Part shown: in pieces, positions 35,720 to 63,157 of the stretch
How the letters are laid out: every line of letters starts with the position of its first letter
Position numbering within the stretch: position 1 is the first letter of the stretch
Virus record (IMG/VR): IMGVR_UViG_3300026035_000001
Location: 1,634 to 65,633 of that record
Length of the DNA stretch: 64,000 nucleotides
Strand: one strand, 5' to 3'
Source of the DNA: a virus
Taxonomy: Duplodnaviria; Caudoviricetes
Notes under the pieces: generated by a model
What the model saw: only the letters and a program-made list of their open reading frames with translations
Databases searched by the model: none
Told to the model about the DNA's origin: nothing
Translations under genes and position numbers: made by a program

Positions 35720-35965
35720 ATGGGTGTCAAAAATCTCCGCGAATCGTTCAATGCTATAGCGGCGCCGACCTATACCGCGACGCTTGCGCTGATGGACACC
35801 AGCCGGGTTCACGATGTAGAATGCAATATCCTCACGTTCATAGGGACCAAGAGCAGCGGCGAGAAATTCACGATTTCGTCGCGACCGGTCAAAGGCGGGG
35901 AGGATGTGAATCTCGTTGCGGCCGAGACGGCGCACAAGCTTATGGATGAGGAAAAGCAGCCATGA
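35720..35965 (+). CDS. hypothetical protein
   Basis: GAGGA SD; 81 aa. Confidence 0.7.
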   Translation: MGVKNLRESFNAIAAPTYTATLALMDTSRVHDVECNILTFIGTKSSGEKFTISSRPVKGGEDVNLVAAETAHKLMDEEKQP

Positions 35966-36429
35966 ATGACCCGATCCTATCGATCCTGTTGAGGCGCCTT
36001 GTTCTCCCCGTCGCATTCTTGATCGCGGTCACGGTCATGGCATTGCTGTTTCCTCTGCCGGCACCGAGCCGCGCCGGCTCCGGCAATGCTATCACTTGCG
36101 ACAGCGCACCGCTGATTTACGACGCCTCGACCAACGGCGCTACGCGGCTATTCGCATCATCAGACACCAAGCGGACGCTCTATATTTGCGGCTATCTGAT
36201 CAACGTCGGCGGCACCGCCACGAACGTGAAACTGCAATATGGCACCGGATCGGCATGCGCCTCCAATACGGTAGACCTCACCCCGAATTGGGTGCTCGGC
36301 ATCTCCGGTCAGGTGAACATGCAGGGCGGCAACTGGGAGGGCATGACTGCGCCTCCTGGGTTTGATTTCTGCATCAAGACGTCTGCCGGCAACCCGGTCC
36401 AGGCCCTGGTATATGTGACCTATTTCTGA
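35962..36429 (+). CDS. predicted secreted beta-rich protein
   Basis: RR + long hydrophobic stretch + PSRA cleavage-like site. Confidence 0.75.
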   Translation: MNDPILSILLRRLVLPVAFLIAVTVMALLFPLPAPSRAGSGNAITCDSAPLIYDASTNGATRLFASSDTKRTLYICGYLINVGGTATNVKLQYGTGSACASNTVDLTPNWVLGISGQVNMQGGNWEGMTAPPGFDFCIKTSAGNPVQALVYVTYF

Positions 36430-36431
36430 TG

Positions 36432-36509
36432 CAGCCCGGCGGTGTCGCTTTCCGCTGAATCGGGCTGACAGGGGGCCGCACAAGCGACCTGAAAGACGTT
36501 GCGGCCCCC
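36432..36509 (+). promoter_or_regulatory. tandem intergenic hairpins
   Basis: CAGCCCG/CGGGCTG and GGGGGCCGCA/TGCGGCCCCC. Confidence 0.4.
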
Positions 36510-36529
36510 GAATAAAAAAGGATTGAGGA

Positions 36530-37000
36530 ATGTCGCATTTGATGAGCTCAGTGGAAAATCTGGAAGGATACGACCAGATCACGAAGGTTGGCGTGGGAGC
36601 AAACGTCCTGTTCCATATCCAGCCCGGCAGGCAGCGGCAGGGCCGCGACACTTTCCCAGCGCTGGTGCTGTCGCAGCACCCCGACGACGGGACGCTCGAT
36701 CTCCTGGTGTTTTTCGAGCCGGAGGATTTGATTTGGGAGCGCCGTGTCCCGGCCTTCACCGAGAATATGCCGAATCGCTGTTGGTCACCCGTCACTGATC
36801 AGCCGGGCGATGCACCCCTGGTCGGCGCCGACGGTGAGGCTCTGGAGGCGATCCGCTCCAGCATCGCGGATTTGAAGGCAAAAATGCTCGGGCCCTATCG
36901 GGAGCCGCCAAAATCGGTTATGGAGCATTTGGCGGATTTCGATGAGCGCTTGACGAAGCTGGAGCGTGCGGCGCAGCCGAAAGGCAAGAAGGGAAAGTAA
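36530..37000 (+). CDS. hypothetical protein
   Basis: 156 aa immediately before the portal gene. Confidence 0.75.
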   Translation: MSHLMSSVENLEGYDQITKVGVGANVLFHIQPGRQRQGRDTFPALVLSQHPDDGTLDLLVFFEPEDLIWERRVPAFTENMPNRCWSPVTDQPGDAPLVGADGEALEAIRSSIADLKAKMLGPYREPPKSVMEHLADFDERLTKLERAAQPKGKKGK

Positions 37001-41014: not shown

Positions 41015-41020
41015 ACTCGC

Positions 41021-41256
41021 TTGACGGCGCAACAATCTTTCGCTAGGAGTGTTGCACGCGGGGACTGCGGGAAGTGTCCCACCTCTTTTCTGGCTGCTGT
41101 CGCCATATCCTCCGGGGATTAAAAGCACAGAGGCTCCGCCGCCATCGGCGAGGATATCGCTCGCAGCGAGCGTTAATCGTTTGCACCCAGCACTGATCTT
41201 AATCGCGCCTTTGCGCCCCCACGGGGGCGTGCTCGCGCCAGCAGGGGTGCCCCGCG
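41021..41256 (+). promoter_or_regulatory. promoter plus ~200-nt structured leader of the capsid gene
   Basis: TTGACG-N17-TAGGAG; hairpins GGGAC/GTGTCCC, CTCGC/GCGAG, GCCCC/GGGGC. Confidence 0.5.
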
Positions 41257-42369: not shown

Positions 42370-42384
42370 GGGAGGGTCTGTGAC

Positions 42385-42813: not shown

Positions 42814-43206
42814 ATGAATTTTCTGCGCTCACTCAAGGCGATCCCGGCGGCTCTCGCCGCCCTGGTCGTGGCCTCGGCGATCAGCTGGGCAGCCTTCACC
42901 TTCTCGACGGACCGCATCATCGGCACCGGTGTTGCGGCTCCGGCGCTCACGTCCTGCGGCACCTCCCCGGCGATCACCGGCACCGATCTGGCGGGTACCG
43001 TCACGATGGGTACCGGCACCCCGACCGGTTGCGTGATCACGTTCAACGTGCCGAAGACCACCGCGCCGCATTGCCTCGTGGTCTGGATCGCAACCCCGCT
43101 GGCTTCGCAGTCCTATGCGACGTCGGCCACCGCCATCACGTTGACCCAGACCGCGACGTCTTCGAACGTCGTGAAGTATTTCTGCGTCGACGTGGCAGGC
43201 GGATAA
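42814..43206 (+). CDS. signal-peptide-bearing structural-module protein
   Basis: MNFLRSLKAIPAALAALVVASAISWA|A; Thr/Gly-rich beta mature part. Confidence 0.75.
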   Translation: MNFLRSLKAIPAALAALVVASAISWAAFTFSTDRIIGTGVAAPALTSCGTSPAITGTDLAGTVTMGTGTPTGCVITFNVPKTTAPHCLVVWIATPLASQSYATSATAITLTQTATSSNVVKYFCVDVAGG

Positions 43207-43266: not shown

Positions 43267-43752
43267 ATGCTGAAGCGACTTTTCAATTCCGCCGCGGCAG
43301 GCTTGGTCTTCGCGCTGGCGGCTCTGGTAACGGGCGCCTTCGCGCTGTCGATCACCGGGCGCGATAGCCAGTTCCAGCGCTCGATCTTGCAGGCTGGCAT
43401 CCCGGCGGTGTCGACCGAACTAGCGATCACCGCCTCGACCACCCAGACCCTTGCTGGAGCCTATCAGCTATCAGCTGGTTTCAGTCAGGTTGGAACGGCA
43501 AGTTCGAATGATGCTGTGAAGCTTCCGTCGCTGACCGCGTTGGGCTCTCCGAGCAATCTTGATGCATCGCTCAATATGGTCATCGCCAACAATACGGCGA
43601 ACTCGATCACGGTATTTCCGTTTGCATCGACCGATGTCATCGTGGTTGGCAACACCGCATTGGGCGCTGGTGCAGCCTTCACCTTGACGACGCTGAAGGT
43701 GATGGAATGCTGGTCGGCCAGCAGCGGGCGGTGGTATTGCACTGCGAGTTGA
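43267..43752 (+). CDS. signal-peptide-bearing structural-module protein
   Basis: MLKRLFNSAAAGLVFALAALVTGAFA|L; DAVKLP...IANNTANSITVFP fibre-like motif. Confidence 0.75.
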   Translation: MLKRLFNSAAAGLVFALAALVTGAFALSITGRDSQFQRSILQAGIPAVSTELAITASTTQTLAGAYQLSAGFSQVGTASSNDAVKLPSLTALGSPSNLDASLNMVIANNTANSITVFPFASTDVIVVGNTALGAGAAFTLTTLKVMECWSASSGRWYCTAS

Positions 43753-43789: not shown

Positions 43790-44506
43790 GTGGCAAACGA
43801 TCTTGCGGCGATGGTGTTTCGCATCGCGGCCGAACTCGGCTCCAGGTTTGATCTGGCAGGTGCTGTGGGATCGGCGAGCCAATCGGCGCCGAATGCGGAG
43901 GCGATCCGCAATGCGATCACCACGGCTATCTCCGAGTACCAGAAAGAGCGCTTTCGGTTCAACGAAATCGACCCGTCGGTGCCCTCGACGTTCTCGACTG
44001 TCGCGCTGCGCTCGGTCTACACGAACGCCGATTCGCCGCTGATCGGGACGGCCTTCTATTTCGATTACCTCAACATCCAAATCGGCAACACACTTCAGCA
44101 ACTGGGCCGCGTTACGCCCGAGCAGCAGCACCTCAATATCCAGCTATACAACCAGTTCGGATTCCCATCGTCATGGGCCTATGAGGGCAACTCGATCATT
44201 CTCTATCCGGTGCCAGACACGGCCTACACGCTCTACATCGGCGCCCACCTCAACCTTGCGGCGCCGGCAACCGACAATGAGGCCGGCAACCCGTGGATGA
44301 CGTCGGCGGAGGCTCTGATTCGCTCGCGCGCGAAATACGAGATCGCCACCCATGTGACCCGCAACCCGGCGATGGTGAAGGCCATGTCTCCGCTGCCTGA
44401 TGGCAACGATGGGCGCCCTGGCGCGACCTATATGTTCTGGCGCTCACTGAAGGGTGAGGCCAACAAGGTGACCGGGACCAGCCGCATCAAGCCGATGAGG
44501 TTCTGA
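43790..44506 (+). CDS. head-tail adaptor (putative)
   Basis: IRNAITTAISEYQKERFRFNE...ILYPVPDTAYTL...NPWMTSAEALIRSRAK. Confidence 0.7.
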   Translation: MANDLAAMVFRIAAELGSRFDLAGAVGSASQSAPNAEAIRNAITTAISEYQKERFRFNEIDPSVPSTFSTVALRSVYTNADSPLIGTAFYFDYLNIQIGNTLQQLGRVTPEQQHLNIQLYNQFGFPSSWAYEGNSIILYPVPDTAYTLYIGAHLNLAAPATDNEAGNPWMTSAEALIRSRAKYEIATHVTRNPAMVKAMSPLPDGNDGRPGATYMFWRSLKGEANKVTGTSRIKPMRF

Positions 44507-46212
44507 TGCCGGCCAATATCGTCAAATTCCCGCCCTACGCTCCCGATGTGACCGATCTCGGTACGGACACCTCGGCCCTGGTGCTCAACTGTGTGCCACG
44601 GTCGGACGGCTATGGCCCGATGCCGAGCCTGCAATCATTCACGCAGGCGCTGCCGGCGGCGTGCCGCGGCTATTTTTTCGCGCGCAAATCCGACGGATCG
44701 ATTGCGGTGTTCGCAGGTACTGCGACGGAGCTCTACCTTCTCAACAACACGGACTTTTCGTGGGTGGTGGTATCGAAGGCGACCTACTCACCGCTGGTCT
44801 CGACCGATAATTGGCAGTTCGTGCAGTTCAACGATCTCGTCATCGCAGTACAGGCCAACACGCCTCCGCAGAAGTTCGCGCTGTCGAGCTCAACGCAATT
44901 CGCGGACCTCGGCGGCTCGCCTCCGGCGGCCGGCGGCGTGGCGGTGGTAGGCTTCTTCGTGGTGCTGACCAATCTGGTCACAAATTCGCGCCGCGTGCAG
45001 TGGAGCGATCTGTCGGGACCGGAGACCTGGACCGCAGGCGTAGGCCTGTCCGACTTCGAAGACCTCCCCGACGGCGGCCAGACCATCGGTGTCTCGGGTG
45101 GCGATGCCTATGGCGTTGTGTTCCAGGAAAGCGCGATCCGCACGCTGATTTATGCGCCGGGCAGCCCAGCGATTTTCCAGATCAACCGCATCTCGACGCA
45201 GGAATCGCTTTTCGCGAAATATTCGATCATCAACGTTGGGAATCGGACCTTTTACTGCGGAGCGGCCGGCTTCAAGGAGATTGTCGGCGGGGGCGATCCC
45301 TCGCCGATTGGCAAGGATCAGGTCGACCAGACATTCTTTACCGACGTCGACCGTGGCAATTTGCAACTCGTGATTGGAGCATCCGATCCTACATCGACGA
45401 GGGTTTATTGGGCCTACAAGTCGCAGAGCGGCGATGCCGGGCTGTTCGACAAAATCCTCTGTTACGACTGGGCGCTGCGGCGGTGGTCTCCGCTTGAGGT
45501 ATCAGGCGAATATGTGGCATCGCTGGCAAAACCCGGCCTGACGCTCGAACAGTTGGATGCGATTGCCCCGGGCGCGCTCCAGGTAACGGGCGCCGCCAAC
45601 AACGGCTCCGGCCTGATCCGGCTGACGCTGAATGCGACATCGAACGCTTTTTTCAATATTGCCGGCCAGAACTTCATTGAAGTGCAAGGGGTGACGGGAA
45701 CGACGGAGGCTAATGGCTCCTGGCGCGTCAACATCATTGACGGCACGCATATTGATCTGATCGGGTCGGTCTTCGTAAATGCGTATGTCGCCGGTGGCGC
45801 GATCGGCGGATCGCTAGATGCTCTCACGTTTTCTCTCGACAGCATCTCAAAATCCTCGGTGGCGCAGCTGTCCGCTTTCAATTCGGCGCATCTGCTCGGG
45901 TTTTTCTCCGGCCCTAATCTTGAGGCGACGCTGGATACAGCGCAAATCGACACCGGAGGCCAAATGGTGTTCACCACGCAATTGATCCCGCTGACGGATT
46001 GCTCGATAGCCTTCGGGTCGATCGGCACCCGCAACAATGCGAACGCTGCGATCACCTACACCGCGGAGAGCCAGATCGACGACATGGGGCAAATCTCGAT
46101 CAACCCAACCGAATCTCGATATCAGCGCATGCGGCTGCGGCTGCCGGCGGGCGCAGGCTGGTCCTATGCCCGAGGCGTCCACCCCGACACGATTGTTGCC
46201 GGGGATCGCTGA
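44506..46212 (+). CDS. tail nozzle/tubular protein with FCCH-like insertion
   Basis: LNCVPRSDGYGP, WQFVQFND, VQWSD, LVVFQE-like propeller motifs; insertion VTGAANNGSGLIRLT...VTGTTEANGSW. Confidence 0.75.
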   Translation: MPANIVKFPPYAPDVTDLGTDTSALVLNCVPRSDGYGPMPSLQSFTQALPAACRGYFFARKSDGSIAVFAGTATELYLLNNTDFSWVVVSKATYSPLVSTDNWQFVQFNDLVIAVQANTPPQKFALSSSTQFADLGGSPPAAGGVAVVGFFVVLTNLVTNSRRVQWSDLSGPETWTAGVGLSDFEDLPDGGQTIGVSGGDAYGVVFQESAIRTLIYAPGSPAIFQINRISTQESLFAKYSIINVGNRTFYCGAAGFKEIVGGGDPSPIGKDQVDQTFFTDVDRGNLQLVIGASDPTSTRVYWAYKSQSGDAGLFDKILCYDWALRRWSPLEVSGEYVASLAKPGLTLEQLDAIAPGALQVTGAANNGSGLIRLTLNATSNAFFNIAGQNFIEVQGVTGTTEANGSWRVNIIDGTHIDLIGSVFVNAYVAGGAIGGSLDALTFSLDSISKSSVAQLSAFNSAHLLGFFSGPNLEATLDTAQIDTGGQMVFTTQLIPLTDCSIAFGSIGTRNNANAAITYTAESQIDDMGQISINPTESRYQRMRLRLPAGAGWSYARGVHPDTIVAGDR

Positions 46213-46571
46213 TGCTTCGTTCTGCTCTTGTTCTCACCGCTCTTGCTGCGGCCTCGCCGGCTATGGCCGATAGCATTCTGCCTCATCCTGCTGGTTGCCC
46301 GGCTCGACAGTTCTGCGGCTGCGGTGTGGCGGTGGCAGTGTTCGGTGCGCCGGTGCGGGCCTTATGGCTGGCTGCGGAATGGCCCAGGCGCTTCCCGCGC
46401 GCGCCGCCGGCTCCCGGCATGGTGGCTGCGCGCGCCCATCATGTGATGCTGCTACGTCAGCATATCGAAGGATCGATTTGGGTGGTATATGATCCGAACA
46501 GTGGGCGACATCGCACCCGCGAGCATGCGCGTTCGATCGCCGGCTATACGATTGTAAACCCGCATGGGTGA
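46212..46571 (+). CDS. secreted CHAP/NlpC-like Cys-His protein
   Basis: MLRSALVLTALAAASPAMA|D; FCGCG...LAAEW..FPR..PAPGMVAARAHHV...YDPNSG. Confidence 0.65.
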   Translation: MLRSALVLTALAAASPAMADSILPHPAGCPARQFCGCGVAVAVFGAPVRALWLAAEWPRRFPRAPPAPGMVAARAHHVMLLRQHIEGSIWVVYDPNSGRHRTREHARSIAGYTIVNPHG

Positions 46572-50345: not shown

Positions 50346-50346
50346 T

Positions 50347-51866: not shown

Positions 51867-53751
51867 TTTGAATTTGCTTGAGGAAATCCTGGCGCGCGCG
51901 GCGTCGCCGCAGTCGCAATTTGATCCTGCTATGTTTCCTCCGGCAGCGGCGCCGAAGCTTTCCCTGATCGAGCGATTGATGGGGCAGCGCAAGCCCGGCG
52001 CCGCGCCGGCATCGCCTTTCCCTGATATGCAGGCTCCGGGAGCGCCGCCGGCAGCACCGCCATGGGCGGCACAAGCTGGCATCATCGCGCCGGGGATCGG
52101 GGGGCTCGGTAATATGGACGCAGCGACCACGCGCGCGCCGACGTCGCCAGTTGACCCGAACTATGCTGAACCATCGAGCGACACTGAGCGCCAATTGCAG
52201 GCCATGGTGCAGCCATCCGGTGCCAAGCCGCTCCCGCCGCCTCTGCCGCAGGCCCGGCCTCGTGAGGCTGATGGCTCGCTCTCGCCCGATCCTGCTCGGC
52301 CATCTCCGACGGATGCCTCCTCGCAACAGCGCGGGCCGGCTGCGGAGGATGATCACGCGGCGGCGCCGAACTCGCAAGGACTAGCACCGGCTGGACCAGC
52401 ACCGGCGGGCAACGTGCCGCAGATGGCGCAGCCATCGCTTTGGGATAACGTCGGCGGCCTCGCCAACAAGGTGATGAGCGGGCTTTCTGACCATTCGGCG
52501 ACACTGCTTGCCCTCGGCGCCGGGTTCGCGGGGGCGCCGAATATCGGGCAGGGCATCAGCCGAGCATCGCAATATGCGATCCCGGCGACGCAGCAGGATT
52601 TGAAGAATCGTCTTCAGGTGCAGAACCAGTCCTCGACCTACCGGGCGATGATCGAGGCGGGCGTGCCGCCGAATCAGGCGCTGGCCGCGGTCGGCAACCC
52701 GGAGCTCGCCAAGCGGCTGATGGATGCCTATATCGTCGACCGCAAATCCGAGATCAAGACGATCAAGAGCAAGGATATGTTCGGCAATGAGACCGAGCGC
52801 CTTGTGGCGGTCAACCCCTATGACGGCACCTCGAAAGAGATCACCGGCAAACCTGGAGCAGCCGCTGCAACGCCGGGCGCTGCCGCGCCAGCACCGGGCG
52901 GGACAAGCGGCGTATTTGCGTCTGGCGTTTCGATGGACACGTTCGACCACAGTAAGAGCGGCGCCGATTATCTGGCACAGTTCTCGCCGGAGGTGCAGGC
53001 TGGTGTCAAAAAGTATCTCGCGGGGGAATCTCTCCCGACGGGCAGGCAATCGCAGGCGCAAGCGATCAAGTATGCGGCTCAGAAATATGCCGATGACGTC
53101 GGGTTGCCGGCGGGTGAGCAGGCCTACAACCAAAAAAAGGTCTTCAAGAACGCACTGGCCGACACCAAGAGCGGCGTGGGCCTCCAGGTGAAGGGCTTCC
53201 AGCAGGGCCTTTCGCATGCTGCGGCGCTGGCCGATCAGATCGTGAAGATGGGCAACTGGAACGGCCTCGGGATCGCGCCGGTGGCCCATGTCGTCAACGA
53301 CGTCCGAAACCAGAGCACGACGCAAAAAGGCAAGGTCATCGCTGCGGAGAACAGCGCGCAGGCGTTGTCCGGTGAAATCGGCAAACTGTTCTCGGGCGCG
53401 AGCGGCGGCGGCGTGCATGAACGGCAGGCGACAGCCAAGCGATTTGCCGGCAACCTGTCTGGACCGGAGGCAGCCGGCGCGCTCGAATCGACCTTGGAGT
53501 TGATGCACGGCGGCCTCAACTCGATCAACCAGACCCGGGATCGCGTGTTCGGTCCTGGCGCCGGTGAAATGCCGGGGCTGAACTTCGTCGGCCCGGAGGA
53601 GCAGGCCAATATCGACAAGATCGAAAAGGCGATCAAGGTGCTGCGCGGCGAGGCACCGCCGGAGGCTCCGGCAAAAACTGGTGTTGTGGCTCCGCCTCCA
53701 GGCCGGTATGTCTATGATCCCGCCACCAAGATGATGAAGCCGCTGCAATGA
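51856..53751 (+). CDS. ejection protein (putative)
   Basis: 631 aa; LLALGAGFAG, C-terminal PPPGRYVYDPA. Confidence 0.7.
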   Translation: MEADLNLLEEILARAASPQSQFDPAMFPPAAAPKLSLIERLMGQRKPGAAPASPFPDMQAPGAPPAAPPWAAQAGIIAPGIGGLGNMDAATTRAPTSPVDPNYAEPSSDTERQLQAMVQPSGAKPLPPPLPQARPREADGSLSPDPARPSPTDASSQQRGPAAEDDHAAAPNSQGLAPAGPAPAGNVPQMAQPSLWDNVGGLANKVMSGLSDHSATLLALGAGFAGAPNIGQGISRASQYAIPATQQDLKNRLQVQNQSSTYRAMIEAGVPPNQALAAVGNPELAKRLMDAYIVDRKSEIKTIKSKDMFGNETERLVAVNPYDGTSKEITGKPGAAAATPGAAAPAPGGTSGVFASGVSMDTFDHSKSGADYLAQFSPEVQAGVKKYLAGESLPTGRQSQAQAIKYAAQKYADDVGLPAGEQAYNQKKVFKNALADTKSGVGLQVKGFQQGLSHAAALADQIVKMGNWNGLGIAPVAHVVNDVRNQSTTQKGKVIAAENSAQALSGEIGKLFSGASGGGVHERQATAKRFAGNLSGPEAAGALESTLELMHGGLNSINQTRDRVFGPGAGEMPGLNFVGPEEQANIDKIEKAIKVLRGEAPPEAPAKTGVVAPPPGRYVYDPATKMMKPLQ

Positions 53752-56300
53752 CCATCGAAGTCATCGGGCCCGACAAGTCATCGTTCCAGTTTCCGGACGG
53801 TACGCCCGAGGCTGCGATTACGGCCGCGCTCGATCAGCACTATGGCGGCAAGCCAGCAGATGAAGGGTTCGACCGCAACGATCCAGCCTTGAAGAATCAG
53901 GATACGCGCGCTTTGCTGCGCGGCGTCCCCGTCGTCGGACCGCTGGTCACCAACAAGCTCGCCGCGGGGCTGCGCACCGCCTTCAACGGGGGCAAGTATG
54001 CGGAAAACCTGCAGCAAGAGGATGCGGCGCAAAAGGCTTTCGAGGCGGAGCATCCGGTTCTTGACACTGTGTCCGAGGGTATCGGCGGCACATTGGCGCT
54101 GGGTGGTTTCGGCGGTCTTGTCCCGCAAGCGGCGCGGGCGCTGGGAATGACCGGAAAGCTGCTGCCGGCGATGAAGAACGCCGCGCTCTCTGGTGCGGCG
54201 ATCGGCGGCGCAGATGCGGCGGCGCGCGGCAATGACATCGGCAGCGGGGCGGTCGCAGGCGGCCTCACGGGCCCGGCTGGTGTGCTGCTCGGCAAAGGGG
54301 TGGGCAAGGCCTATGACGCGGTAGCGCGCAATCTGCGCGGGGCTCCGCCGGTCCCGACGCGAACGATGGACGTCAATGGCACACCGGTCCCGATCCGCGA
54401 ATCGGTGGAGACCGGTAGCCCGGATACCAGCCGCACCGAGCAGACGCTCTTGAAGTCGGGGCAGCCTGCCGCGCTTCAGGGCGAGGAAGCCACCCAGGCG
54501 GCTATGGCGAAGGCCCACAGCGATCTTTCGGCCGGCCTCGACCCGACAGGCACCAGCCCAGGAGCGGCGCCCCTGGAGGCTGGGGACGCGGTGGCGCGCG
54601 ATCTTGCCGCGCAGGAGCAGCAGCGCGCCGCGGCCGAAGTTGCGCGGACCCGCGCGGCGATCGAACAGACAGCCGGCATCCACAGCGAGATGGACAAGCC
54701 GCCGTTCGCGCCGGCACCGCAGGCGCCGCAGGAGGCAGGACAGTCCCTCTCCGATCGTATCCGGGGGATGTTCCAGACAGCGCGCGGAGCCACGCGCGCG
54801 GCTTATGACAGGGCTGGACAGATTGCGGGCGAGTTCAACCCGGCACGTCTGCTCGGTGCTGGCGAAGATATCCGGCTCCGCCTCAACAGCGCGCCCGGCA
54901 ACGAGCGGGTGCGAATCAGTCCCGAGGTGACCCCCACCGCCCAAGCTGCGCTTCAGACGATCGATAGCGAGATCGCGCAGCTGCGTTTCACCAACGATGC
55001 GGCGCGCGGCCAGCGCCCGATCACGCCTGCCGACATGGAGCAGGTACGAAAGCAACTGGTGATCTTGCGCCGGCAGGCCAACAATGCCGCGCGCACTACC
55101 GGCAATTGGGAGGATGCGCGCGCCGTCGGCCGCGTGATGGATGAGTTCGGCGGCTGGCTGGAGCGGACGGTGCGCCGTCCTGGCGGATTCTCTGGCGATG
55201 CCGAGGCCTATCTGCGAGCGCAGCAGGCTGCGCGTACCGCGCACGCCACCGAGCGCGCGGCATTCTCACGCCGCGGCCCAGGCGATCAGGTCGGCGCGAT
55301 GATGGAAGGCGTCATCGGGAAATACCCTGGACAAGAGATGTCGCCGGACAAGATCATCCGGACGCTGCTCGGATCGCCGGACAACCCGGGCGGATCGGAG
55401 CACGCCGTTGCGGTCTTGAACCACTTGCGCGAAGGGCTCGGAGCGGATTCGCCGGAATGGGCGGCGCTGAAGAAAGCGGCGATCTCGCATTTTACGGAGC
55501 CTGCGCCCGGCGGCGAGGCGGTGCCGATGACCAAGCAGGCGGCGCGCATGCTGCGCTTTCTGGGCAATGAGCGCCATTCGTCGGCGATGTTCACGCCGGA
55601 GGAGCGCGCGCGGCTGTCGTTGCATGCCCAGCGCCTCGCCAGCGCCGAGGATGTGCTGCCGGCCAAGGGCACGGTCGAACAGAAGATCGCGATCCTTTCC
55701 GGACGCATCACGGGCGAGCCTGCCACCGGCACCCAGGTGGTGCACGCGCTGCTCAACCCGGCCGCGGACAATGCGCCGAAGCTCGCCGCGGCGATCCGTG
55801 AGCGCGTCAGCCCGCAAAGCTGGGCGCTGGTGAAGCAAGGCCTCTGGAAGATGATCAGCGAGGCCCCGGAGGGCATGACGGCATGGGGTGATCAGAAGAT
55901 CGGGCAATCGATCGCGAAGTTCCTCAACACCGAGCTCGCCCGTGAGGTGTTCACGCCGAATGAGCGCATGCTGATGAAGACGATCGCCGATGCTCACCAC
56001 AAGCTGATCCCGATCCCTGGGACGACAAATCCGAGCGGCACCGCGCACACCGCCGCAAAGCTGGTCCAGGGTGCACGGCATCAACTCCTGGCACTATTCG
56101 GTTTTGCGCATGGCGGGCTGCCGGGCGCCGGCGTCGCGCTGGCGCTGGGCAAGGCGCTCGATTGGTCGGTAAACCGGCGCGCAGCGAATCAGGCAACGAA
56201 ACTGTTTCTCGGCCCGCAGCCGAAGGGCCCGGCCTCGACGGCAGCACAGCGCGCGCTTGTTACGGCCGCGCAAACACCGGCTCTGCGTCAGTCGAGGTAA
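53748..56300 (+). CDS. large ejection protein (putative)
   Basis: 850 aa, helical; MTIEVIGPD...FPDGT N-terminus, TNPSGTA near C-terminus. Confidence 0.75.
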   Translation: MTIEVIGPDKSSFQFPDGTPEAAITAALDQHYGGKPADEGFDRNDPALKNQDTRALLRGVPVVGPLVTNKLAAGLRTAFNGGKYAENLQQEDAAQKAFEAEHPVLDTVSEGIGGTLALGGFGGLVPQAARALGMTGKLLPAMKNAALSGAAIGGADAAARGNDIGSGAVAGGLTGPAGVLLGKGVGKAYDAVARNLRGAPPVPTRTMDVNGTPVPIRESVETGSPDTSRTEQTLLKSGQPAALQGEEATQAAMAKAHSDLSAGLDPTGTSPGAAPLEAGDAVARDLAAQEQQRAAAEVARTRAAIEQTAGIHSEMDKPPFAPAPQAPQEAGQSLSDRIRGMFQTARGATRAAYDRAGQIAGEFNPARLLGAGEDIRLRLNSAPGNERVRISPEVTPTAQAALQTIDSEIAQLRFTNDAARGQRPITPADMEQVRKQLVILRRQANNAARTTGNWEDARAVGRVMDEFGGWLERTVRRPGGFSGDAEAYLRAQQAARTAHATERAAFSRRGPGDQVGAMMEGVIGKYPGQEMSPDKIIRTLLGSPDNPGGSEHAVAVLNHLREGLGADSPEWAALKKAAISHFTEPAPGGEAVPMTKQAARMLRFLGNERHSSAMFTPEERARLSLHAQRLASAEDVLPAKGTVEQKIAILSGRITGEPATGTQVVHALLNPAADNAPKLAAAIRERVSPQSWALVKQGLWKMISEAPEGMTAWGDQKIGQSIAKFLNTELAREVFTPNERMLMKTIADAHHKLIPIPGTTNPSGTAHTAAKLVQGARHQLLALFGFAHGGLPGAGVALALGKALDWSVNRRAANQATKLFLGPQPKGPASTAAQRALVTAAQTPALRQSR

Positions 56301-56455: not shown

Positions 56456-57128
56456 GGACGGTCCAACTATCATGAGGGGGCTGATCGAGCGGGGGTACTC
56501 CCCTGTCCAGGCAGCCGCGCTCGCGGGTCATGTCCTACAGGAAAGTGGGGGCGACCCCACAAACGTCAACCCGAAAGAGGACGCGCATGGCCTGCTGCAG
56601 TGGCGCCTAGACCGCTGGAAATCCCTCCAGGATTTCGCCAAGGAACGAGGTACAGCCCCGACCGATCCGCAACTCCAGCTTGATTTCATTGGCCGCGAGC
56701 TTGGGGGAAGCGAAGCGAAAGCTGGAGCAGGTTTCCGGGCTGCCACCGATCTTCCTTCAGCCAGCGCCGCTCTCAAGCCGTATATCCGATTTGGCGACAA
56801 TTCCGATCAAGCGAGGTTGAACAATGCTCGTGGGCTCTTTGGCCAAGCGCCGCAGTCTGCTCCAGCGCCGGCATCGGCCGCATCGCCTTCACCTCAAGTT
56901 GCTCCAGGAGTTCCAGGGACCTCCCCGGCCCCAGAGCAGCCCGACAGCGGACTTGCCGAAGCCATTGCAGCCATCCCCAAGCGCATCGCCGAGCAGCAGC
57001 AAGTAGCGGCTCCGCCGCCGCTCGATCTGCAGCCCGTGCAGCCGATGATCACCCCGCAAATGATCCGGGCGCGACAACTCGCACAGGCCATGCTATCTCG
57101 ATCGCTCAACCCTGGAAGCCAGTCATGA
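56454..57128 (+). CDS. phage tail lysozyme domain protein
   Basis: GYSPVQAAALAGHVLQES...GLLQWR..RW..L...QLDFI..EL...RLNNA. Confidence 0.85.
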   Translation: MDGPTIMRGLIERGYSPVQAAALAGHVLQESGGDPTNVNPKEDAHGLLQWRLDRWKSLQDFAKERGTAPTDPQLQLDFIGRELGGSEAKAGAGFRAATDLPSASAALKPYIRFGDNSDQARLNNARGLFGQAPQSAPAPASAASPSPQVAPGVPGTSPAPEQPDSGLAEAIAAIPKRIAEQQQVAAPPPLDLQPVQPMITPQMIRARQLAQAMLSRSLNPGSQS

Positions 57129-58204
57129 AACTCAAGAACTTTTTCGGGATGGTGTTGCTGGTGCTGATCGCGGCTGGATCGCAGCCGGCGATCGGCGCGT
57201 TTTGGCAATGGTCGAAAACGACAGCAACGAATGCCACAGCTGATCCGTCGATAAATTGGGCGGAAGGCATGTCGCCGTCCTCGATCAACGATTCCGGCCG
57301 GGCCATGATGGCGCGCGCTGCCGAGTATCGCGACGATATTTCCGGGGCTTTGGCTCTAGCCGGCTCGTCGACGGTTTATACGGTTACGACGAACCAGACG
57401 CTATGTGTGGCGCCGGCCTCTACTACCACGCCGACCACCGGGCAAATGCTCGCGTTTGTTCCGAACGTCACGAATGGGATTGCGCCGACGCTGAAGGCCG
57501 ATGGCTGCAATGCTTTTCCATTCCAGGTCACAGCTGGAACGGCGCTGCCGGCTGGGACGATCGTAGGTGGGACACCATATCGTGCATCATTCAGCGGCAC
57601 CGCATGGGTGCTGGAAGCTGGCTACGGAAATCCCTATGCGGTTCCGCTCGGTGGATTGCTGGATTCGACAATCGCAACTCCGCCGAATAGCAATTTCATC
57701 CTGCCGGCTGGCCAGTGCATTTCATCGACCACCTATAACGCCTATTTCGTAGCCCTCGGATCACCGGCGAGCGGCGGATGTGCGGGCGGTCAATTTGCGG
57801 TCATCGACATGCGTGGCCGGGTGTCGGCAGCGCTAGATAATCTGAATGGGTCACCAGCAAGTAGGTTAACCACGGCTGGTTGTGGCGTCACGTTTCAGAC
57901 GATGGGGCTCGCCTGCACGAGCACTGAAACGGTGGCGCTTGGGCCAACCAATATGGCTCCGTATACCCCTTCAGGATCGGTTGTTCTCAACTCGCTGGCG
58001 TTCAACTCGGCGAATATCAGTTCAACAGGCGGTGGCGGTCCTGGCAACGTCACCGTTGGTGGATTCTCCACAACGGGGCCGCTTGTGCTCAATGCGCCAA
58101 CTTCATCTCTGACATTTACCGGCACCGCTGGACCTGGAACTAGCGCACCTTTCGCGCGCGTGCAGCCTACCGTAGGAGTCTATCGGTTTCTGAGGGTGAT
58201 CTGA
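57125..58204 (+). CDS. tail fibre/collar protein with N-terminal signal peptide
   Basis: MKLKNFFGMVLLVLIAAGSQPAIG|AFWQWS; INWAEGMSPSSINDSGRAMMA; collar-like LPAGQ...FAVIDMRGRV. Confidence 0.8.
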   Translation: MKLKNFFGMVLLVLIAAGSQPAIGAFWQWSKTTATNATADPSINWAEGMSPSSINDSGRAMMARAAEYRDDISGALALAGSSTVYTVTTNQTLCVAPASTTTPTTGQMLAFVPNVTNGIAPTLKADGCNAFPFQVTAGTALPAGTIVGGTPYRASFSGTAWVLEAGYGNPYAVPLGGLLDSTIATPPNSNFILPAGQCISSTTYNAYFVALGSPASGGCAGGQFAVIDMRGRVSAALDNLNGSPASRLTTAGCGVTFQTMGLACTSTETVALGPTNMAPYTPSGSVVLNSLAFNSANISSTGGGGPGNVTVGGFSTTGPLVLNAPTSSLTFTGTAGPGTSAPFARVQPTVGVYRFLRVI

Positions 58205-58632
58205 TGGCTGTTGTCGATACAGAAATGACGTTGCGGCGTCAGCGTGAATCGGCTCGACGGCTTCGCTTTGAGCCGAGCGCGATAATTCCAGCGACAGACG
58301 TGCAGACCGCTATTGAACAAGTAGTCGGTATCGCGCAACCCGGTGCCAAGGCAATAACCAGCGCAGCCTCGCCGTATACGGTTCTTTCGTCCGATCGCAT
58401 TCTGCTGGTTGACACGACGGGCGGTCCCGTCACGATCAACATGCAACCCTCGGCCGCGCGCCAATATGATCTGGAGATCAAGGACGACAAGGGGACCGCT
58501 GCGACCAACAATATATCCGTCGTGCCGAGTGGCGCAGAAACGATCGATGGTCTTGCGCCCTACACCATGGACAGCAACTACAGCAACGTAGTCTTTGGTC
58601 TGCAAGCTGGTGGGTATTATGTCAAGAATTAG
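58204..58632 (+). CDS. tail-associated protein
   Basis: ATDVQTAIE, VDTTGGPVTI.M, IKDDKG, ETIDG fibre-type motifs. Confidence 0.7.
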   Translation: MAVVDTEMTLRRQRESARRLRFEPSAIIPATDVQTAIEQVVGIAQPGAKAITSAASPYTVLSSDRILLVDTTGGPVTINMQPSAARQYDLEIKDDKGTAATNNISVVPSGAETIDGLAPYTMDSNYSNVVFGLQAGGYYVKN

Positions 58633-59770
58633 GGCTCTCGCTGCAGCACTGAGTTTGTTTCTGGCGCCTGCCGCCGCATTCGGTCAGGCTGCACAATTCG
58701 GCCCTGGCCAGATTTACGGAAACTCGACGGCTGCACAGCGCAACGGCCGCGCCGAGAACGTGACTGCGATCCTGGATCGCGCTCTTTCCAGTGTGCGTGG
58801 TTCGATCATCGAGCGCGGCGCCTCGGGGTGGGGCGTTATAGGGCCGGGCACGTCAGGGCTTGCCTTTATCAGCGGTGGCGCCGGTGCCGATCCAGCTTAT
58901 GGCATTCTCGGTTACCCCGGTGGCGGCTGCGGTGCTGCGATCTCGGCATCCAATGGCGGGGTATTCTTTTCTGGCGCCTCGGCATGTTCGCTCCTCGCTG
59001 GAACGGCAACGGCTCGGCTCCCGCTCTTGTCCGGGGCCAATGTCGTTGGCGTGTGGGGAGCGTTCACGCTTCCGGCCAGCGTCACGAGTGGCGGCGTAGC
59101 GTGCTTTACGTCAGCCACCGCCATGAGTTCCAGTGGTGGACTTACGGCCGGCGCGATTATGCTTGGTGGGGGCTCCGGAATATGCCCAGGCTCTGCAGGT
59201 CTCGGCACAACGACAACTGTCTACCACGGCAATGCGGGCGGGGCCGGAGCGTTCGGTTCGGTGGTGTCGGCCGATCTTAACATCACGACGACGAGTTGCA
59301 CGAATCAGGTCATAACGGCGATTTCCGCGACTGCATCTGGGACATGCACCTCGATCGCCTATGCCATGATTGCCGCGAGTTCTCTTGCGACTGCGGCCAA
59401 CCTGGAAGCTGGCGCGGCCAATGTGCTCTTGAGCGCAGCAATCATCTATGATGCCGAGCAGACGATCACGTTCAACGCCACCCAGACGTTCGATTTCAAC
59501 ACGTTCCTTAATGGCCGCATCACGCTCACCGCGAACATCACGTCGTTGACGTGCTCGAATATGAAGGCCAGCCAGAGCGGCGTGATCACGCTGGTGCAAG
59601 ACGGCACCGGAAGCCGGACGATGGTGGCTGGATGGTGCACGCAATTCAGATGGGCCACTGGTGTGAGAGGCGTTCTTTCGACCGCGGCATCCTCCGTCGA
59701 TGCCCTGTTCTATCAGTGCGTATCGACGTCGATCTGTTATGTGTCCCTCAGTAAGGCGCAGGCAAACTGA
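58619..59770 (+). CDS. Gly/Ser/Ala-rich tail fibre with signal peptide
   Basis: MSRIRALAAALSLFLAPAAAFG|Q; C-terminal LTANIT..SN.KASQSG.ITLVQDGTGSRT...LSTAASSVD. Confidence 0.8.
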   Translation: MSRIRALAAALSLFLAPAAAFGQAAQFGPGQIYGNSTAAQRNGRAENVTAILDRALSSVRGSIIERGASGWGVIGPGTSGLAFISGGAGADPAYGILGYPGGGCGAAISASNGGVFFSGASACSLLAGTATARLPLLSGANVVGVWGAFTLPASVTSGGVACFTSATAMSSSGGLTAGAIMLGGGSGICPGSAGLGTTTTVYHGNAGGAGAFGSVVSADLNITTTSCTNQVITAISATASGTCTSIAYAMIAASSLATAANLEAGAANVLLSAAIIYDAEQTITFNATQTFDFNTFLNGRITLTANITSLTCSNMKASQSGVITLVQDGTGSRTMVAGWCTQFRWATGVRGVLSTAASSVDALFYQCVSTSICYVSLSKAQAN

Positions 59771-60693
59771 TGTCCCGACGCAAATTATTGCTGATCTCGG
59801 CGCTCTGCCTTTCGCTCCTCGGCATCATCGGCCAAGCGATCAACGTATCGGCCAATCCTGGAGCAACCCAGCAGCCGATGATGGTCGGAGGCTCGACGCC
59901 TCTGGCATGCACCGGTGGCACGCACACTACGGTCGGCGGCCATGAGATTTACACGTTCACATCCTCCGCCACGTTGAATTGCTCTGGCTCTGGAATTGTA
60001 ACCTATCTTCTGGTTGCCGGCGGTGGGGCTGGAGGGTCGGCAACGGCCCTGGCAAATGGCGGCGGAGGGGCCGGAGAATACCGAGAGCACACAACTTTCC
60101 CGCTTAGCGCCGGTTCATATCCAATCGTGATTGGCGCCGGAGGCATTCCGAATAATGCCGCGGCCAATGGCGGAACTTCTTCCGCTTTCGGGTTCAATTG
60201 CACGGGCGGAGGAGTGGGCGCGGGTGCGCTTGCTGGCAATGGAGCAAATAACGGCACGGGTACGGCCGGCGGCTCTGGTGGTGGCGCTGGAAACGGCATC
60301 ACGACGCAAGCGGGAGGAGCCGCGGGGGCGACGTGTGCCGGCCTTGCCAATGCGGGCGGCAGCAGCACGGCAGCGAATCGCGGCGCCGGAGGCGGCGGTA
60401 GCGGCGGGGCTGGCGTCAACAGCCCGGATGCCAACAATGGCGGCACCGGCGGCATTGGTACGTCGAGCTCTGCATCGGGGTCTGCTGTCACGTATGCGTG
60501 CGGCGGCGGCGGATCGAGCGCATCAGCGGGATCGGTCAAAGCTGGAGGCTGCGCATCGGCCGGCTCTGGCGGTATTCAGGGCGGTGCCGGTCCTACTGCG
60601 GCAGCGGCGAATAGCGGCTCTGGCGGCGGCGGCGGGTTTGCTGGAACCGGCGGGGCCGGAGGCTCTGGGATTTTCATCCTCAGTATCAACTAA
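59770..60693 (+). CDS. glycine-rich domain protein with signal-like N-terminus
   Basis: HEIYTFTSS..YLLVAGGGAGG...GGAGGSGIFIL; MSRRKLLLISALCLSLLGII. Confidence 0.8.
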   Translation: MSRRKLLLISALCLSLLGIIGQAINVSANPGATQQPMMVGGSTPLACTGGTHTTVGGHEIYTFTSSATLNCSGSGIVTYLLVAGGGAGGSATALANGGGGAGEYREHTTFPLSAGSYPIVIGAGGIPNNAAANGGTSSAFGFNCTGGGVGAGALAGNGANNGTGTAGGSGGGAGNGITTQAGGAAGATCAGLANAGGSSTAANRGAGGGGSGGAGVNSPDANNGGTGGIGTSSSASGSAVTYACGGGGSSASAGSVKAGGCASAGSGGIQGGAGPTAAAANSGSGGGGGFAGTGGAGGSGIFILSIN

Positions 60694-60711
60694 AAAAGGA
60701 AGGACTAAACC

Positions 60712-62220
60712 GTGAGATTTTTGGGGCATTTTCTATTCGCAGCAATCGCTTTACTTTCCTCGCCACTCTGCGCGCAGTCCGTTACGTGGACTCAGATGCC
60801 GGACAATCCGATCCCGTGCTGCGACGGCATGGCCGGAGTGATCTCGCCAGCGAACGGCGACATTCTGTCGATTGACCGATGGGACGCCACAGGACCAGCC
60901 GGGAGCTCTACCCATAGCGAGACGTGGCGATCATCGGACCGGGGGCAGACCTGGACGTTGAGCAACGTCACGAAGTCTTACCAGGGTTGCCACTCCACTC
61001 CGGTCGTGCCGTTCAACGGGCGGCTTTATCAGATCGGCTGCGATGGCGTTGGAGGGACTTCCGGCACCCCTGGCTATGACAACCGGGTCAAATCATGGGA
61101 TGGTGCCGAATACCCGACATCCACGGGCTGGCGCGTCGATGCCACCTTGGCTTCCCTCAACCGGGTAGGGCACTTCGGGTTTGCGCTTGGCGGTCAACTC
61201 TGTTTTGGCGGTGGCCAGACTTTTACCTGGATTTCGAGCACTCCGGCCCCGACCAAGGTGTTAACTGACCTGATCTGCTCCCCCGACGGGACAACGTGGA
61301 CCCAGGTTACCGACACGCTTCCGGCAGGCATACACGGGTTCATCTCCTCCGCTTCTCTCCCGATCATCGGAAGCGAAGCCATCGCATGGAGCGGCGGTAT
61401 CTATGCGACCGCTGATATCCCAAATCGCCTTTACAACGGGATGCAGAGCATCGTTGCTATTGGAGGGCCTCCGACCTTCACGGTTCGGCTGCTTAGCGGC
61501 TACAACGCGATGCCTCCGCTGTTCTACAATTCGACTGCGGTCATGCCTCTGGCGAGCTCGCCAAGCGGGCAAATCCTGCTGACTCTTGCCGGGCACAACG
61601 GCAACAATCTGCAATCCGTGTGGGCATCCTTCGACGGTGGCAGAACGGTCTCGCAGCTTACCAACTTCCCCGGAACCCCTATGCATGCGGCGTCGGTAGC
61701 TGTCGTCGGAAATGAGATGGTCACGTGGGGTGGGACCAAGGTTACGCCGAACTCCAAGACGTGGCATCTGAACGACAGTGCCAGTATCCACCTTGGTGCC
61801 CCGGCAAACGGAACAACGAACCTCGGAAGCGTCTACACCATCTGCGACCGCACGAACGCCTTGACGCCGGGCAAGGCCGTGAAGTGGCTCCGCCTCTATA
61901 TGAATGGATCGCATGCGGTGCGGCCAAAGATCGCCCGCGAGAACCCGACGAATTACGATTTCGTCTTCAACGGGACGTCGGCACAGCACCCTGGAGGAGG
62001 ATATGCGGATTTTTCCGGCGGCAACTACGTTGTTCCTAGCGATGGATTCAATTACCGGGTGTGCTTCGCGATGTCATTCACGCCGGGTGTCCCTGATGCT
62101 TTCTCGTTCGGCGGAAGCGCCGCGCGCTCCCAGGCAGCTGGCGATCTTTCCGGAAGCTCAGTCACGCTGACAGCGATGCCGGATGCCGCGACGATCCCGG
62201 TCGGGTGGACGGAAAATTGA
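60712..62220 (+). CDS. Kelch/BNR-like beta-propeller receptor-binding protein with signal peptide
   Basis: MRFLGHFLFAAIALLSSPLCA|Q; WRSSDRGQTW, SPDGTTW, SFDGGRT, LYQIG, GGQ repeats. Confidence 0.75.
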   Translation: MRFLGHFLFAAIALLSSPLCAQSVTWTQMPDNPIPCCDGMAGVISPANGDILSIDRWDATGPAGSSTHSETWRSSDRGQTWTLSNVTKSYQGCHSTPVVPFNGRLYQIGCDGVGGTSGTPGYDNRVKSWDGAEYPTSTGWRVDATLASLNRVGHFGFALGGQLCFGGGQTFTWISSTPAPTKVLTDLICSPDGTTWTQVTDTLPAGIHGFISSASLPIIGSEAIAWSGGIYATADIPNRLYNGMQSIVAIGGPPTFTVRLLSGYNAMPPLFYNSTAVMPLASSPSGQILLTLAGHNGNNLQSVWASFDGGRTVSQLTNFPGTPMHAASVAVVGNEMVTWGGTKVTPNSKTWHLNDSASIHLGAPANGTTNLGSVYTICDRTNALTPGKAVKWLRLYMNGSHAVRPKIARENPTNYDFVFNGTSAQHPGGGYADFSGGNYVVPSDGFNYRVCFAMSFTPGVPDAFSFGGSAARSQAAGDLSGSSVTLTAMPDAATIPVGWTEN

Positions 62221-62280
62221 CGAAATGATGTCGACGGGATGGGCCTAATGCTGTATTCCGATTCGCTACAGGAGATGCAT

Positions 62281-62733
62281 ATGGCCGATCTCGCAACCGA
62301 CACGACGAACAAGGCAAACGCCGCAGCACGATACGTCGGTTCTAATTTCTCCGGCGCATTGATGTTGATGGCGGTGCTGGCCGGTCTGCCGCCTGACAAG
62401 GCGCAATCGGTTCTGACCAGCCTGCATGCGATTTACGCGGCGCTCCAGGACATGATCGGGGCGTTCTCCAATATCTGGTACATCGTCTTTCCGGTGATCT
62501 CGGCATATCTGCTGAAGGTCGGCGTCAACTCATCCGGGTTTGGCGTCATGATGGACAAGATTTTGACCGCGGCGAAGGCTGGCAACATCGATGCGGCCAA
62601 GTCGATCGTGACGGCCGCGGCCTCTCCCGAGATCGGGACAAAGGGCGTGATCAACCCGGTTTTGGCGCCGGACCCATCAACACCGTCAAACGTCGTCGCG
62701 AGCGCGTCAGACTTGCCAGCCCAAGCAAAATAG
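62281..62733 (+). CDS. membrane-associated protein (holin-like)
   Basis: AGGAG SD; two hydrophobic segments. Confidence 0.6.
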   Translation: MADLATDTTNKANAAARYVGSNFSGALMLMAVLAGLPPDKAQSVLTSLHAIYAALQDMIGAFSNIWYIVFPVISAYLLKVGVNSSGFGVMMDKILTAAKAGNIDAAKSIVTAAASPEIGTKGVINPVLAPDPSTPSNVVASASDLPAQAK

Positions 62734-62743
62734 GAAAAGGGAA

Positions 62744-63157
62744 ATGAGGAAGGCACTTGTCATCGTTGCAGCATTGCTCTCGCTTTCGAGCGTATCCTGC
62801 ACCCCGGCCGAGATGGAGAGATTCCAGACGGTTGAGAAAGTAGCGGTCGCCGTGATCTCTGCCAAGGTTCCGGCGGAGGCAGTTCTGGTCGCCGTGAACT
62901 CCTTCGATATCATCCGCGAGGGTGCGACCGGATATCTGGTCTATTGCAAGACCCACCTTTCCCAGCCGGTGTGCAGCCGCGGCAATCGGCGCCTCGTGAT
63001 CCGGTATGGAAGGCAGGGCACGGTGGCACGCAATAGGCTGGAGGACGCGATCTCCGAGGGCCAGCCGGCGGGGCCAAGGGATTTGTATGACGCCTTGATC
63101 TCGGCGACGTCTTCCCTCAAATCATCACCGGCGCAACAGTTCGTAGGAGCGAAATAG
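62744..63157 (+). CDS. lipoprotein (spanin-like)
   Basis: MRKALVIVAALLSLSSVS|C lipobox. Confidence 0.65.
   Translation: MRKALVIVAALLSLSSVSCTPAEMERFQTVEKVAVAVISAKVPAEAVLVAVNSFDIIREGATGYLVYCKTHLSQPVCSRGNRRLVIRYGRQGTVARNRLEDAISEGQPAGPRDLYDALISATSSLKSSPAQQFVGAK

Follow-up and report, generated by a model that had tools for sequence, protein, structure and literature searches.

In the 64,000-nucleotide stretch of phage DNA analysed here (the window; positions 1,634 to 65,633 of the IMG/VR record IMGVR_UViG_3300026035_000001, Duplodnaviria; Caudoviricetes), the late operon encodes tail fibres and other fibre-like proteins that begin with export-type leaders and carry paired cysteines behind them. 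Since these two features are found on the fibre-like proteins but not on the head, tail-core and injection proteins, the fibre-like parts probably fold outside the cytoplasm. We consider it highly probable that the fibre set is exported, and plausible that it joins the particle at or after lysis. A first-pass annotation of the window had proposed that outer virion parts with Sec signal peptides are exported, fold in the periplasm, possibly with disulfides, and attach during or after lysis. The open reading frames (ORFs) in question, named hereafter by their first position, are the following:

35962..36429, plus strand: 155-residue protein encoded between terminase and portal, in a variable slot; long leader with a predicted cut near PSRA, before GS; 4 Cys
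42814..43206, plus strand: 130-residue protein; leader 1-22 or 1-26, small beta-sandwich, 4 invariant Cys
43267..43752, plus strand: 161-residue protein directly upstream of the adaptor gene; leader 1-26, ITG-R/T linker, fibre-repeat beta-sandwich 48-161, 2 Cys
46212..46571, plus strand: 119-residue ORF whose start overlaps the nozzle stop; leader cut after AMA, before DS; 3 Cys
57125..58204, plus strand: tail fibre 1, 359 residues; leader 1-24, predicted mature end A-F-W-Q-W-S, N-terminal domain, collar-like domain, 6 Cys
58204..58632, plus strand: leaderless, Cys-free protein of 142 residues, always between fibre 1 and fibre 2
58619..59770, plus strand: tail fibre 2, 383 residues; leader 1-22 cut after AFG, before Q; conserved N-terminal region of ~100 residues, mosaic C-terminus, 10 Cys
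59770..60693, plus strand: 307-residue protein whose start overlaps the fibre-2 stop; leader 1-28 cut after VSA, before N; Gly_rich_2 domain, 6 mature Cys
60712..62220, plus strand: 502-residue protein with a GTG start; leader 1-21 cut after LCA, before Q; Kelch/NanM-like propeller, 8 mature Cys
62744..63157, plus strand: 137-residue lipoprotein of the lysis cassette; leader ending S-V-S-C

Leaders and cysteines in the late operon

The late genes form one plus-strand operon that runs from the large terminase gene (34101) to the lysis genes (about 63900), and they were named with the help of PHROG, Pfam and PDB searches. Leaders were called with a rule of our own, not with a trained predictor: it looks for an n-region with net positive charge, for a hydrophobic run (h-run) of 8-18 uncharged residues and for small residues at positions -3 and -1. 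The rule flags nine of the 29 late ORFs, namely 35962, 42814, 43267, 46212, 57125, 58619, 59770, 60712 and 62744, and none of the remaining 20, which include those for the large terminase subunit TerL, portal, scaffold, major capsid protein (MCP), adaptor, nozzle, ejection proteins and lysozyme. This agrees with the first-pass annotation, which had placed nine leaders, ending in PSRA, SWA, AFA, AMA, AIG, AFG, VSA, LCA and a Cys lipobox, at exactly these coordinates, and which had found none on the MCP, portal, adaptor, nozzle and ejection proteins. In a greedy ORF census of both strands, signal-peptide (SP)-like ORFs account for 9 of 29 late versus 1 of 58 early ORFs (Fisher p = 1.5e-4). The sole SP-like or transmembrane (TM)-like N-terminus outside the late operon belongs to an ORF of 137 residues at 27788-28201.

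The n-region has a net positive charge in all eight candidates for cleavage by signal peptidase I (SPase-I), the h-run measures 10-15 residues in seven of them and 18, which is borderline anchor-like, in 35962, and the residues at the cut are compatible with the A-x-A rule in each window protein. As regards the starts, that of 57125 overlaps the upstream stop as ATGA, those of 46212 and 59770 do so as TGATG, and a strong Shine-Dalgarno sequence precedes 42814, 60712 and 62744. Public gene calls begin past the leader in two cases, at Leu13 of 58619 (giving 371 residues) and at Met29 of 60712; such leaders are therefore under-recorded in protein databases.

The second feature is the cysteine content. 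Cysteine makes up 2.21% of the mature leader-bearing proteins versus 0.36% of the other late proteins, most of which have none (Fisher p = 5e-14), a sixfold difference. In gene order, the nine mature proteins have 4, 4, 2, 3, 6, 10, 6, 8 and 2 cysteines, an even number in every case except 46212.

The leader-bearing genes are spaced as ordinary members of the operon, with gaps around them of -14 to +60 nt; the exception is 35962, with 247 nt upstream. Promoter-like and terminator-like sites are no more frequent than in shuffled controls, so that the picture differs from that of lambda lom/bor-type morons, autonomous units of temperate phages which bring along a promoter and a terminator. The spacing, the overlaps and the absence of an excess of such sites indicate that the leader genes are embedded members of the late operon and not self-contained morons.

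To place these features in a wider context, we used 97 related loci (17 centred on fibre homologues, 80 on capsid homologues) and about eight of twelve near-complete genomes, those with usable maps. Homologues of the leaderless late proteins at the 97 loci were called SP-like in 0 of 70 and 2 of 423 cases, and no such call was made among adaptor (n = 51) or nozzle (n = 35) homologues, which act as negative controls from within the operon.

Tail fibre 1 and its leaderless orthologues

A tblastn search with 57125 hits proteins annotated as tail collar or tail fibre in cultured phages, and the protein shares both its N-terminal domain and its gene position with annotated tail fibres of such phages. 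The domain is found in Bradyrhizobium phage ppBeUSDA76-2 (WAX24428.1), in Microcystis phage Mae-JY35 (XAI96525.1, a tail-collar protein) and in gp22 of Paracoccus phage KLEP18-1, with the common motif [FY]-x-W ... N-W-A-E-G-M-x-P-S ... N-D-S-x-R-x-M-M-A, and the cultured genes occupy the same place as 57125, after the ejection proteins and lysozyme. The proteins of ppBeUSDA76-2 (38%) and Mae-JY35 (34%) share the collar-type domain as well. We infer that the N-terminal domain serves for docking to the tail. With Pfam, 57125 itself gives no match and its collar motif is altered by two cysteines; precomputed assignments to PF07484 exist for 5 of the 120 homologues described below.

In the family set, which consists of the best 120 database homologues (45-72% identity), our rule finds a leader of 22-35 residues in 119. 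The net charge of the n-region is +2 in 109 of the 120, and at the cut site Pro is found at -4 in 106, Ala or Val at -3 in 107, and Ala, Ser, Thr or Gly at -1 in 116. Pairwise identity is 42% in the leader versus 71% in the first 60 mature residues. Thus, the sequence of the leader drifts while its signal-peptide features stay, directly in front of a conserved domain, which argues that the leader is under selection as a signal. At the related loci, 12 of 18 fibre-1 homologues have a leader, and leader-bearing homologues are also encoded by Bradyrhizobium chromosomes, the homologue-bearing strains including sp. USDA 4449 and sp. Ghvi.

Leaderless orthologues are present in the related 64-kb genome G002, in ppBeUSDA76-2, Mae-JY35 and KLEP18-1, and in Rhizobium phage RHph_Y1_10. 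They start with M-x(1-3)-[FY]-x-W, which corresponds to the predicted cut of the window protein; the first-pass annotation had suggested checking whether homologues begin there without a leader, and the cultured-phage forms do. In another relative (G001) a different leader stands ahead of the same [FY]-x-W motif. We also considered a leaderless isoform made from an internal start and rejected it, as the cut shows no conserved residue that could serve as a start: any of F, I, V, L, M and Y can precede the first Trp.

The cysteines follow the leader. Their number in the mature protein is even in all 120 homologues (4 in 81, 6 in 35, 2 in 3 and 8 in 1), and the alignment columns change as exact pairs: C94 and C128 are each present in 30 proteins and C253 and C264 each in 117 (both r = 1.0), while C198 (120/120) and C219 (119/120) are nearly invariant. 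The four leaderless orthologues that were aligned have 0-1 cysteines, none of them at the four conserved positions, and the collar motif reads G-Q-A-I-S ... G-D-G in leaderless versus G-Q-C-I-S ... G-G-C in leader-bearing proteins. Compared with the cultured fibres, 57125 has in addition a 24-residue leader and three Cys pairs, two of which lie inside the collar-type region. Such covariation of leader and Cys pairs is expected if the leader delivers the protein to the oxidising periplasm.

One relative (G004, L021:8877-12223) has three tandem fibre-1 paralogues, each with a leader and with 6, 6 and 8 mature cysteines. Its genome contains no homologue of 58204, 58619 or 43267.

Tail fibre 2 and its leaderless partner

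All seven homologues of fibre 2 at the fetched loci have a signal peptide, and a search with the N-terminal region yielded about 49 further homologues, all with leaders ending in A-x-[AG] before Q and nearly all with an even number of mature cysteines. In the compared genomes fibre 2 has its leader in 7 of 7 cases, even alongside a leaderless fibre 1, as in G002, G007 and G008. Members of the family measure 378-738 residues in total, and their mosaic tips include Gly_rich_2 and F5/8C modules; the C-terminus of 58619 is similar to the tail fibre of Caulobacter phage S2B. As judged from sequence, the family is built as receptor-binding fibres usually are, with a conserved N-terminus and a mosaic C-terminus.

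In every compared genome, fibre 2 follows 58204. This small protein gives a weak signal of the T4 gp9/10 type (Pfam PF07880, E = 0.0039) and matches PHROG baseplate and tail families, and a PDB sequence search returned only noise. None of its nine homologues has a signal peptide, and in the compared genomes it is leaderless throughout, with 0-1 cysteines, mostly 0. It is a candidate docking piece on the cytoplasmic side.

Other leader-bearing proteins

Searches of Pfam, PHROG and NCBIfam gave no match for 35962, 42814, 43267 or 46212. The AlphaFold2 (AF2) model of 43267 (pLDDT 78, built with 22 homologues) has one beta-sandwich after the leader. According to VIA-align, it resembles the Solidus gp83 tailspike (Z 11.5), the KP1 baseplate (9.9), the N-terminal XD domain of CBA120 TSP4 (9.0) and the Pa223 capsid spike (8.2); the best six chains have Z scores of 11.5, 9.9, 9.0, 8.4, 8.2 and 7.6, five of them being phage spike, baseplate or capsid-spike chains by title, and the next has 5.6. 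In BFVD, 86 viral models were matched, including Gp9/Gp10 and a head fibre. Judging by this model, 43267 is a single fibre-repeat domain of the T4 gp10 / CBA120 XD type. A profile search with this domain among 1.84 billion representatives returned 6,335 proteins. Among the best 150 of these, 132 are long, fibre-like proteins, most with at least two copies of the domain, and only 2 of the 132 have a leader; the other 18 are short single-domain forms, all 18 with a leader and with 0 or 2 mature cysteines.

At the related loci, 36 of 45 homologues of 43267 have a signal peptide, and in most of the compared genomes an exported protein of ~160 residues is encoded directly upstream of the adaptor. 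The version in G005 is leaderless and has one cysteine. Only G004, which lacks both, speaks for a joint occurrence of the 43267-type protein and the fibre-2 module; in G005 the leaderless 43267 homologue is found beside an SP-bearing fibre 2.

The neighbouring 42814 has 11 homologues, and all 11 have the leader and four cysteines. Its AF2 model (pLDDT 72) is a generic sandwich of the lectin, carbohydrate-binding module (CBM) or fibre-tip type, with Z scores of at most 7.2. In the case of 35962, the hydrophobic run of 18 residues would also be possible for a signal anchor; homologues in G002, G006 and G007 have classical leaders and four mature cysteines, and at the 97 related loci the rule finds a leader in 2 of 2. 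In G002 the terminase-portal slot holds three further exported proteins. One of these is a 557-residue pectate-lyase-like beta-helix (PF12708) with a twin-arginine-type signal (L013:11587-13260, minus strand), and a Wzy_C O-antigen-ligase-like membrane protein is encoded right after fibre 2 in the same genome (L012:5697-7022, minus strand).

Downstream of fibre 2, 59770 matches PF21722 (Gly_rich_2) over residues 73-304 with 40.1 bits (gathering cut-off 24.3) as well as PHROG 2295; a signal peptide was called in 6 of its 120 distant homologues. The ESM Atlas model of 60712 (pLDDT 0.65) has TM-scores of 0.54-0.62 to clusters of Kelch propellers. With Pfam this protein gives sub-threshold BNR and DUF4185 hits only and no Kelch match, and no homologue was matched in cultured phages.

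The lipoprotein 62744 is most simply taken as a candidate outer-membrane spanin or other lysis lipoprotein, which would place it outside the virion story. Its lipobox, S-V-S-C, lacks Leu at -3, and homologues in relatives, which are encoded at the same place after the fibre genes, have L-A-G-C or L-G-G-C. In most of the listed relatives, the lipoprotein gene follows one for a protein of 141-185 residues with a hydrophobic N-terminal segment; in the window it is preceded by 62239, which shows no strong TM helix when its hydropathy is scanned over 19-residue segments. Finally, 46212 may not be a real gene. No homologue was found at any related locus, and its coding signature is weak, with a GC content of 0.60 at third codon positions (GC3), below the 0.72 at first positions (GC1). 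The idea that it encodes a small papain-like amidase was dropped, as it rested on motifs picked by eye.

Proposed assembly in two compartments and its alternatives

The reading that we favour divides the assembly of the virion between two compartments. Fibre 1, fibre 2, 43267 and 42814, and probably also 59770, 60712 and 35962, would be synthesised with a cleavable SPase-I leader, cross the inner membrane unfolded through the host Sec system, fold and presumably trimerise in the periplasm, and be locked by disulfides that the Dsb enzymes of the host introduce. Assembly in the cytoplasm would be confined to head, portal, adaptor, nozzle and ejection proteins and to 58204, all of them leaderless and almost free of cysteine. 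The fibres would most likely dock on the finished, DNA-filled particle once the inner membrane has been breached by the holin, or else after lysis. The first-pass proposal is thus supported in part: the leaders are conserved export-type signals on virion-type proteins, in which Cys pairs occur only together with leaders, and attachment to the virion after export is plausible. The virion story would not extend to 62744 and 46212, and perhaps not to 35962.

Several observations favour late docking. Fibre 1 has kept its N-terminal domain in a genome that has no leaderless copy of it; fibre 2 has the build of a receptor-binding fibre and always has the leaderless 58204 at its side; and the leader genes are translationally coupled to virion genes. 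Moreover, in the Cellulophaga phage phi18:3 (NC_021794), a cultured podovirus, tandem mass spectrometry (MS/MS) proteomics led gp085-087 to be recorded as structural or tail proteins, and all three start with SP-like leaders. Genes that encode leaders can therefore yield virion proteins. It should be noted that phi18:3 differs in having a Bacteroidota host and few cysteines in these proteins (0, 1 and 3), and that the likeness noted here is one of leaders and annotation; we found no paper that discusses these leaders. We hold the whole chain of events, including late docking, tentatively and at slightly less than an even chance. More tentative still is the generalisation that soil podoviruses of a widespread clade export, disulfide-bond and, after the holin breach, dock their entire receptor-recognition layer, made up of two fibres, a single fibre-repeat adaptor and accessory lectin or propeller proteins, so that infectivity would depend on the Sec and Dsb systems of the host.

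A number of considerations weigh against this reading. We infer export, cleavage, disulfide formation and, above all, late docking, and the exported proteins are putative components of the particle. The disulfides could form after release, in proteins that had been kept in the cytoplasm. Other leaderless tail proteins, such as 50299, could bind the receptor, and the fibres are therefore not provably essential parts of the virion. The envelope-directed cargo of G002 (the Wzy_C protein and the pectate-lyase-like protein with a Tat signal) means that some exported late proteins need not be virion parts. No phage gene for a DsbA or a signal peptidase was found in the window, which makes every step dependent on the host. 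A PDB sequence search with the fibre-1 profile gave no match, and there is no solved structure of the N-terminal domain on a tail.

A less likely alternative is that the proteins are exported but act late on the envelope of the infected cell itself, where they could mask or destroy the receptor and thus spare progeny from loss to debris or superinfection, loosen polysaccharide for release, or be displayed as adhesins. The Kelch/NanM-like propeller of 60712 and the lectin/CBM-like sandwich of 42814 would suit such functions, and the G002 operon, with its Tat-signal beta-helix and Wzy_C membrane protein, makes surface remodelling possible for some members of the set. The sole printed reading that we found of SP-bearing phage genes is as envelope modifiers (PMC10367356), and Bdellovibrio sends phage-fibre-like MAT trimers to its own surface (PMC10769870). 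However, this does not sit well with fibre 1, which retains the N-terminal domain of its leaderless orthologues (71% identity) in a genome without a leaderless copy, nor with fibre 2, which combines a conserved N-terminus with a mosaic C-terminus and always follows the leaderless 58204. The translational coupling to virion genes argues in the same direction, and lysogenic conversion is unlikely, as no integrase was found.

The remaining alternatives concern export itself. The pool of protein that ends up in the virion might escape Sec by folding fast, or be tethered to the inner membrane by its N-terminus until lysis, export being a side route or absent. The 18-residue run of 35962 is indeed closer to an anchor, public gene callers often start 58619 and 60712 past the leader, and export is here deduced from sequence. 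We nevertheless regard this as improbable, because short h-regions, a helix-breaking Pro and A-x-A-type sites persist in all but one of the best 120 homologues of fibre 1 although the leaders are just 42% identical, Cys pairs occur only together with leaders, and there is no in-frame start conserved at the cut. That the leaders are merely artefacts, owing to mis-called starts or to chance hydrophobic N-termini in a GC-rich genome, is very improbable indeed. It would fit the orphan 46212 with its weak coding signature, and a spurious overlapping frame at 46228 is SP-like as well, but the leaders are conserved over hundreds of homologues, the starts overlap upstream stops or follow strong Shine-Dalgarno sequences, and false calls in leaderless families amount to 2 of 423. 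Mis-called starts are refuted for every ORF except 46212.

Known systems and implications

Textbook assembly of tailed phages is wholly cytoplasmic. It is nevertheless possible for the last step to take place outside the cell, since P22 heads can be tailed in vitro by free tailspike and T4 particles accept fibres; in both phages, however, synthesis and, as a rule, attachment of these receptor-binding parts take place in the cytoplasm. Our literature searches found no paper on Sec-routed or exported tail fibres of tailed phages, and a periplasmic route for such fibres is apparently undescribed.

Late exported phage proteins that act in the periplasm are known in the form of Sec-dependent and signal-arrest-release (SAR) endolysins. 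Leader-bearing late lysis proteins also include the outer-membrane spanin lipoproteins of the Rz1 type (PMC3556154). Endolysins and spanins differ from the proteins described here in that they serve lysis and are not virion-type fibres, and they account for just one of the nine ORFs (62744). Morons of the lambda lom/bor type have host-type Sec leaders and are autonomous genes of temperate phages. For signal-peptide genes of Porphyromonas phages, a role in modifying the envelope has been proposed (Matrishin et al. 2023, PMC10367356). Like the genes of the window, both have Sec leaders in or near structural regions; the difference is that they are genes of unknown function or autonomous morons, whereas here the leaders are on homologues of tail fibres, whose genes have no promoters or terminators of their own, in a sequence in which no integrase was found. 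The mosaic adhesive trimers (MAT) of Bdellovibrio are chimeric, fibre-like proteins that are grouped with phage-like proteins and displayed at the surface (Caulton et al. 2024, PMC10769870). They demonstrate that such fibres can get to the exterior of a Gram-negative cell, although they are proteins of a bacterial predator encoded outside any phage morphogenesis operon.

If the two-compartment reading is true, these phages would have Sec, signal peptidase and Dsb as host factors, disulfides, which the cytoplasm does not offer, could contribute to the folding of the fibres, and virion assembly would be completed only in connection with lysis. Recombinant production of the fibres would then need periplasmic expression. 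For annotation, it matters that leaders such as those of 58619 and 60712 are easily missed in public gene calls. The contrast at the family level, between fibres with a leader and paired cysteines and fibres with neither, makes the question testable in Bradyrhizobium strains that have leader-bearing homologues.

The phage and its host

The IMG/VR record measures 65.6 kb, has direct terminal repeats and is rated complete; the window covers 64 kb of it and has a GC content of 61%. The phage is complete, podovirus-like and probably virulent, and no tyrosine integrase was found in the window. The other features referred to above are:

363-3435: array of 24 tRNA genes (ARAGORN)
37001, plus strand: portal
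41257, plus strand: MCP, related to PDB 8h89
43790-44506, plus strand: probable adaptor, leaderless tail core, named from its position and the call of the first-pass annotation; its only PHROG match is an unnamed family
44506-46212, plus strand: nozzle, leaderless tail core, with a PHROG match and related to PDB nozzle chains 8zkm and 8zkk
46581-56300, plus strand: block taken as ejection or internal proteins, within which 50299 alone matches a DNA-ejection-protein PHROG
56454, plus strand: tail-lysozyme-type protein

With a Peptidase_S74 intramolecular-chaperone domain at its end, the leaderless 50299 is a candidate central tail fibre or needle. Within the region 46581-51417, a protein of 1017 residues has an LPD23 domain.

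The nearest capsids of cultured phages are those of Rhizobium phage RHph_Y1_10 (46%), Microcystis phage Mae-JY35 and Paracoccus phage KLEP18-1. A soil bacterium of the Bradyrhizobium type is a likely host, because homologues of the fibres occur in Bradyrhizobium chromosomes. The fibre genes (57125-60693) have a GC3 of 0.61-0.66 versus 0.74-0.84 in the core virion genes, which fits horizontally exchanged modules. In the early region (23259-25420), a gene for a PurZ-type, adenylosuccinate-synthetase-like protein (PHROG 1211) adjoins one for a PAPS-reductase-like protein (PHROG 424), a pair that may point to modified DNA bases.

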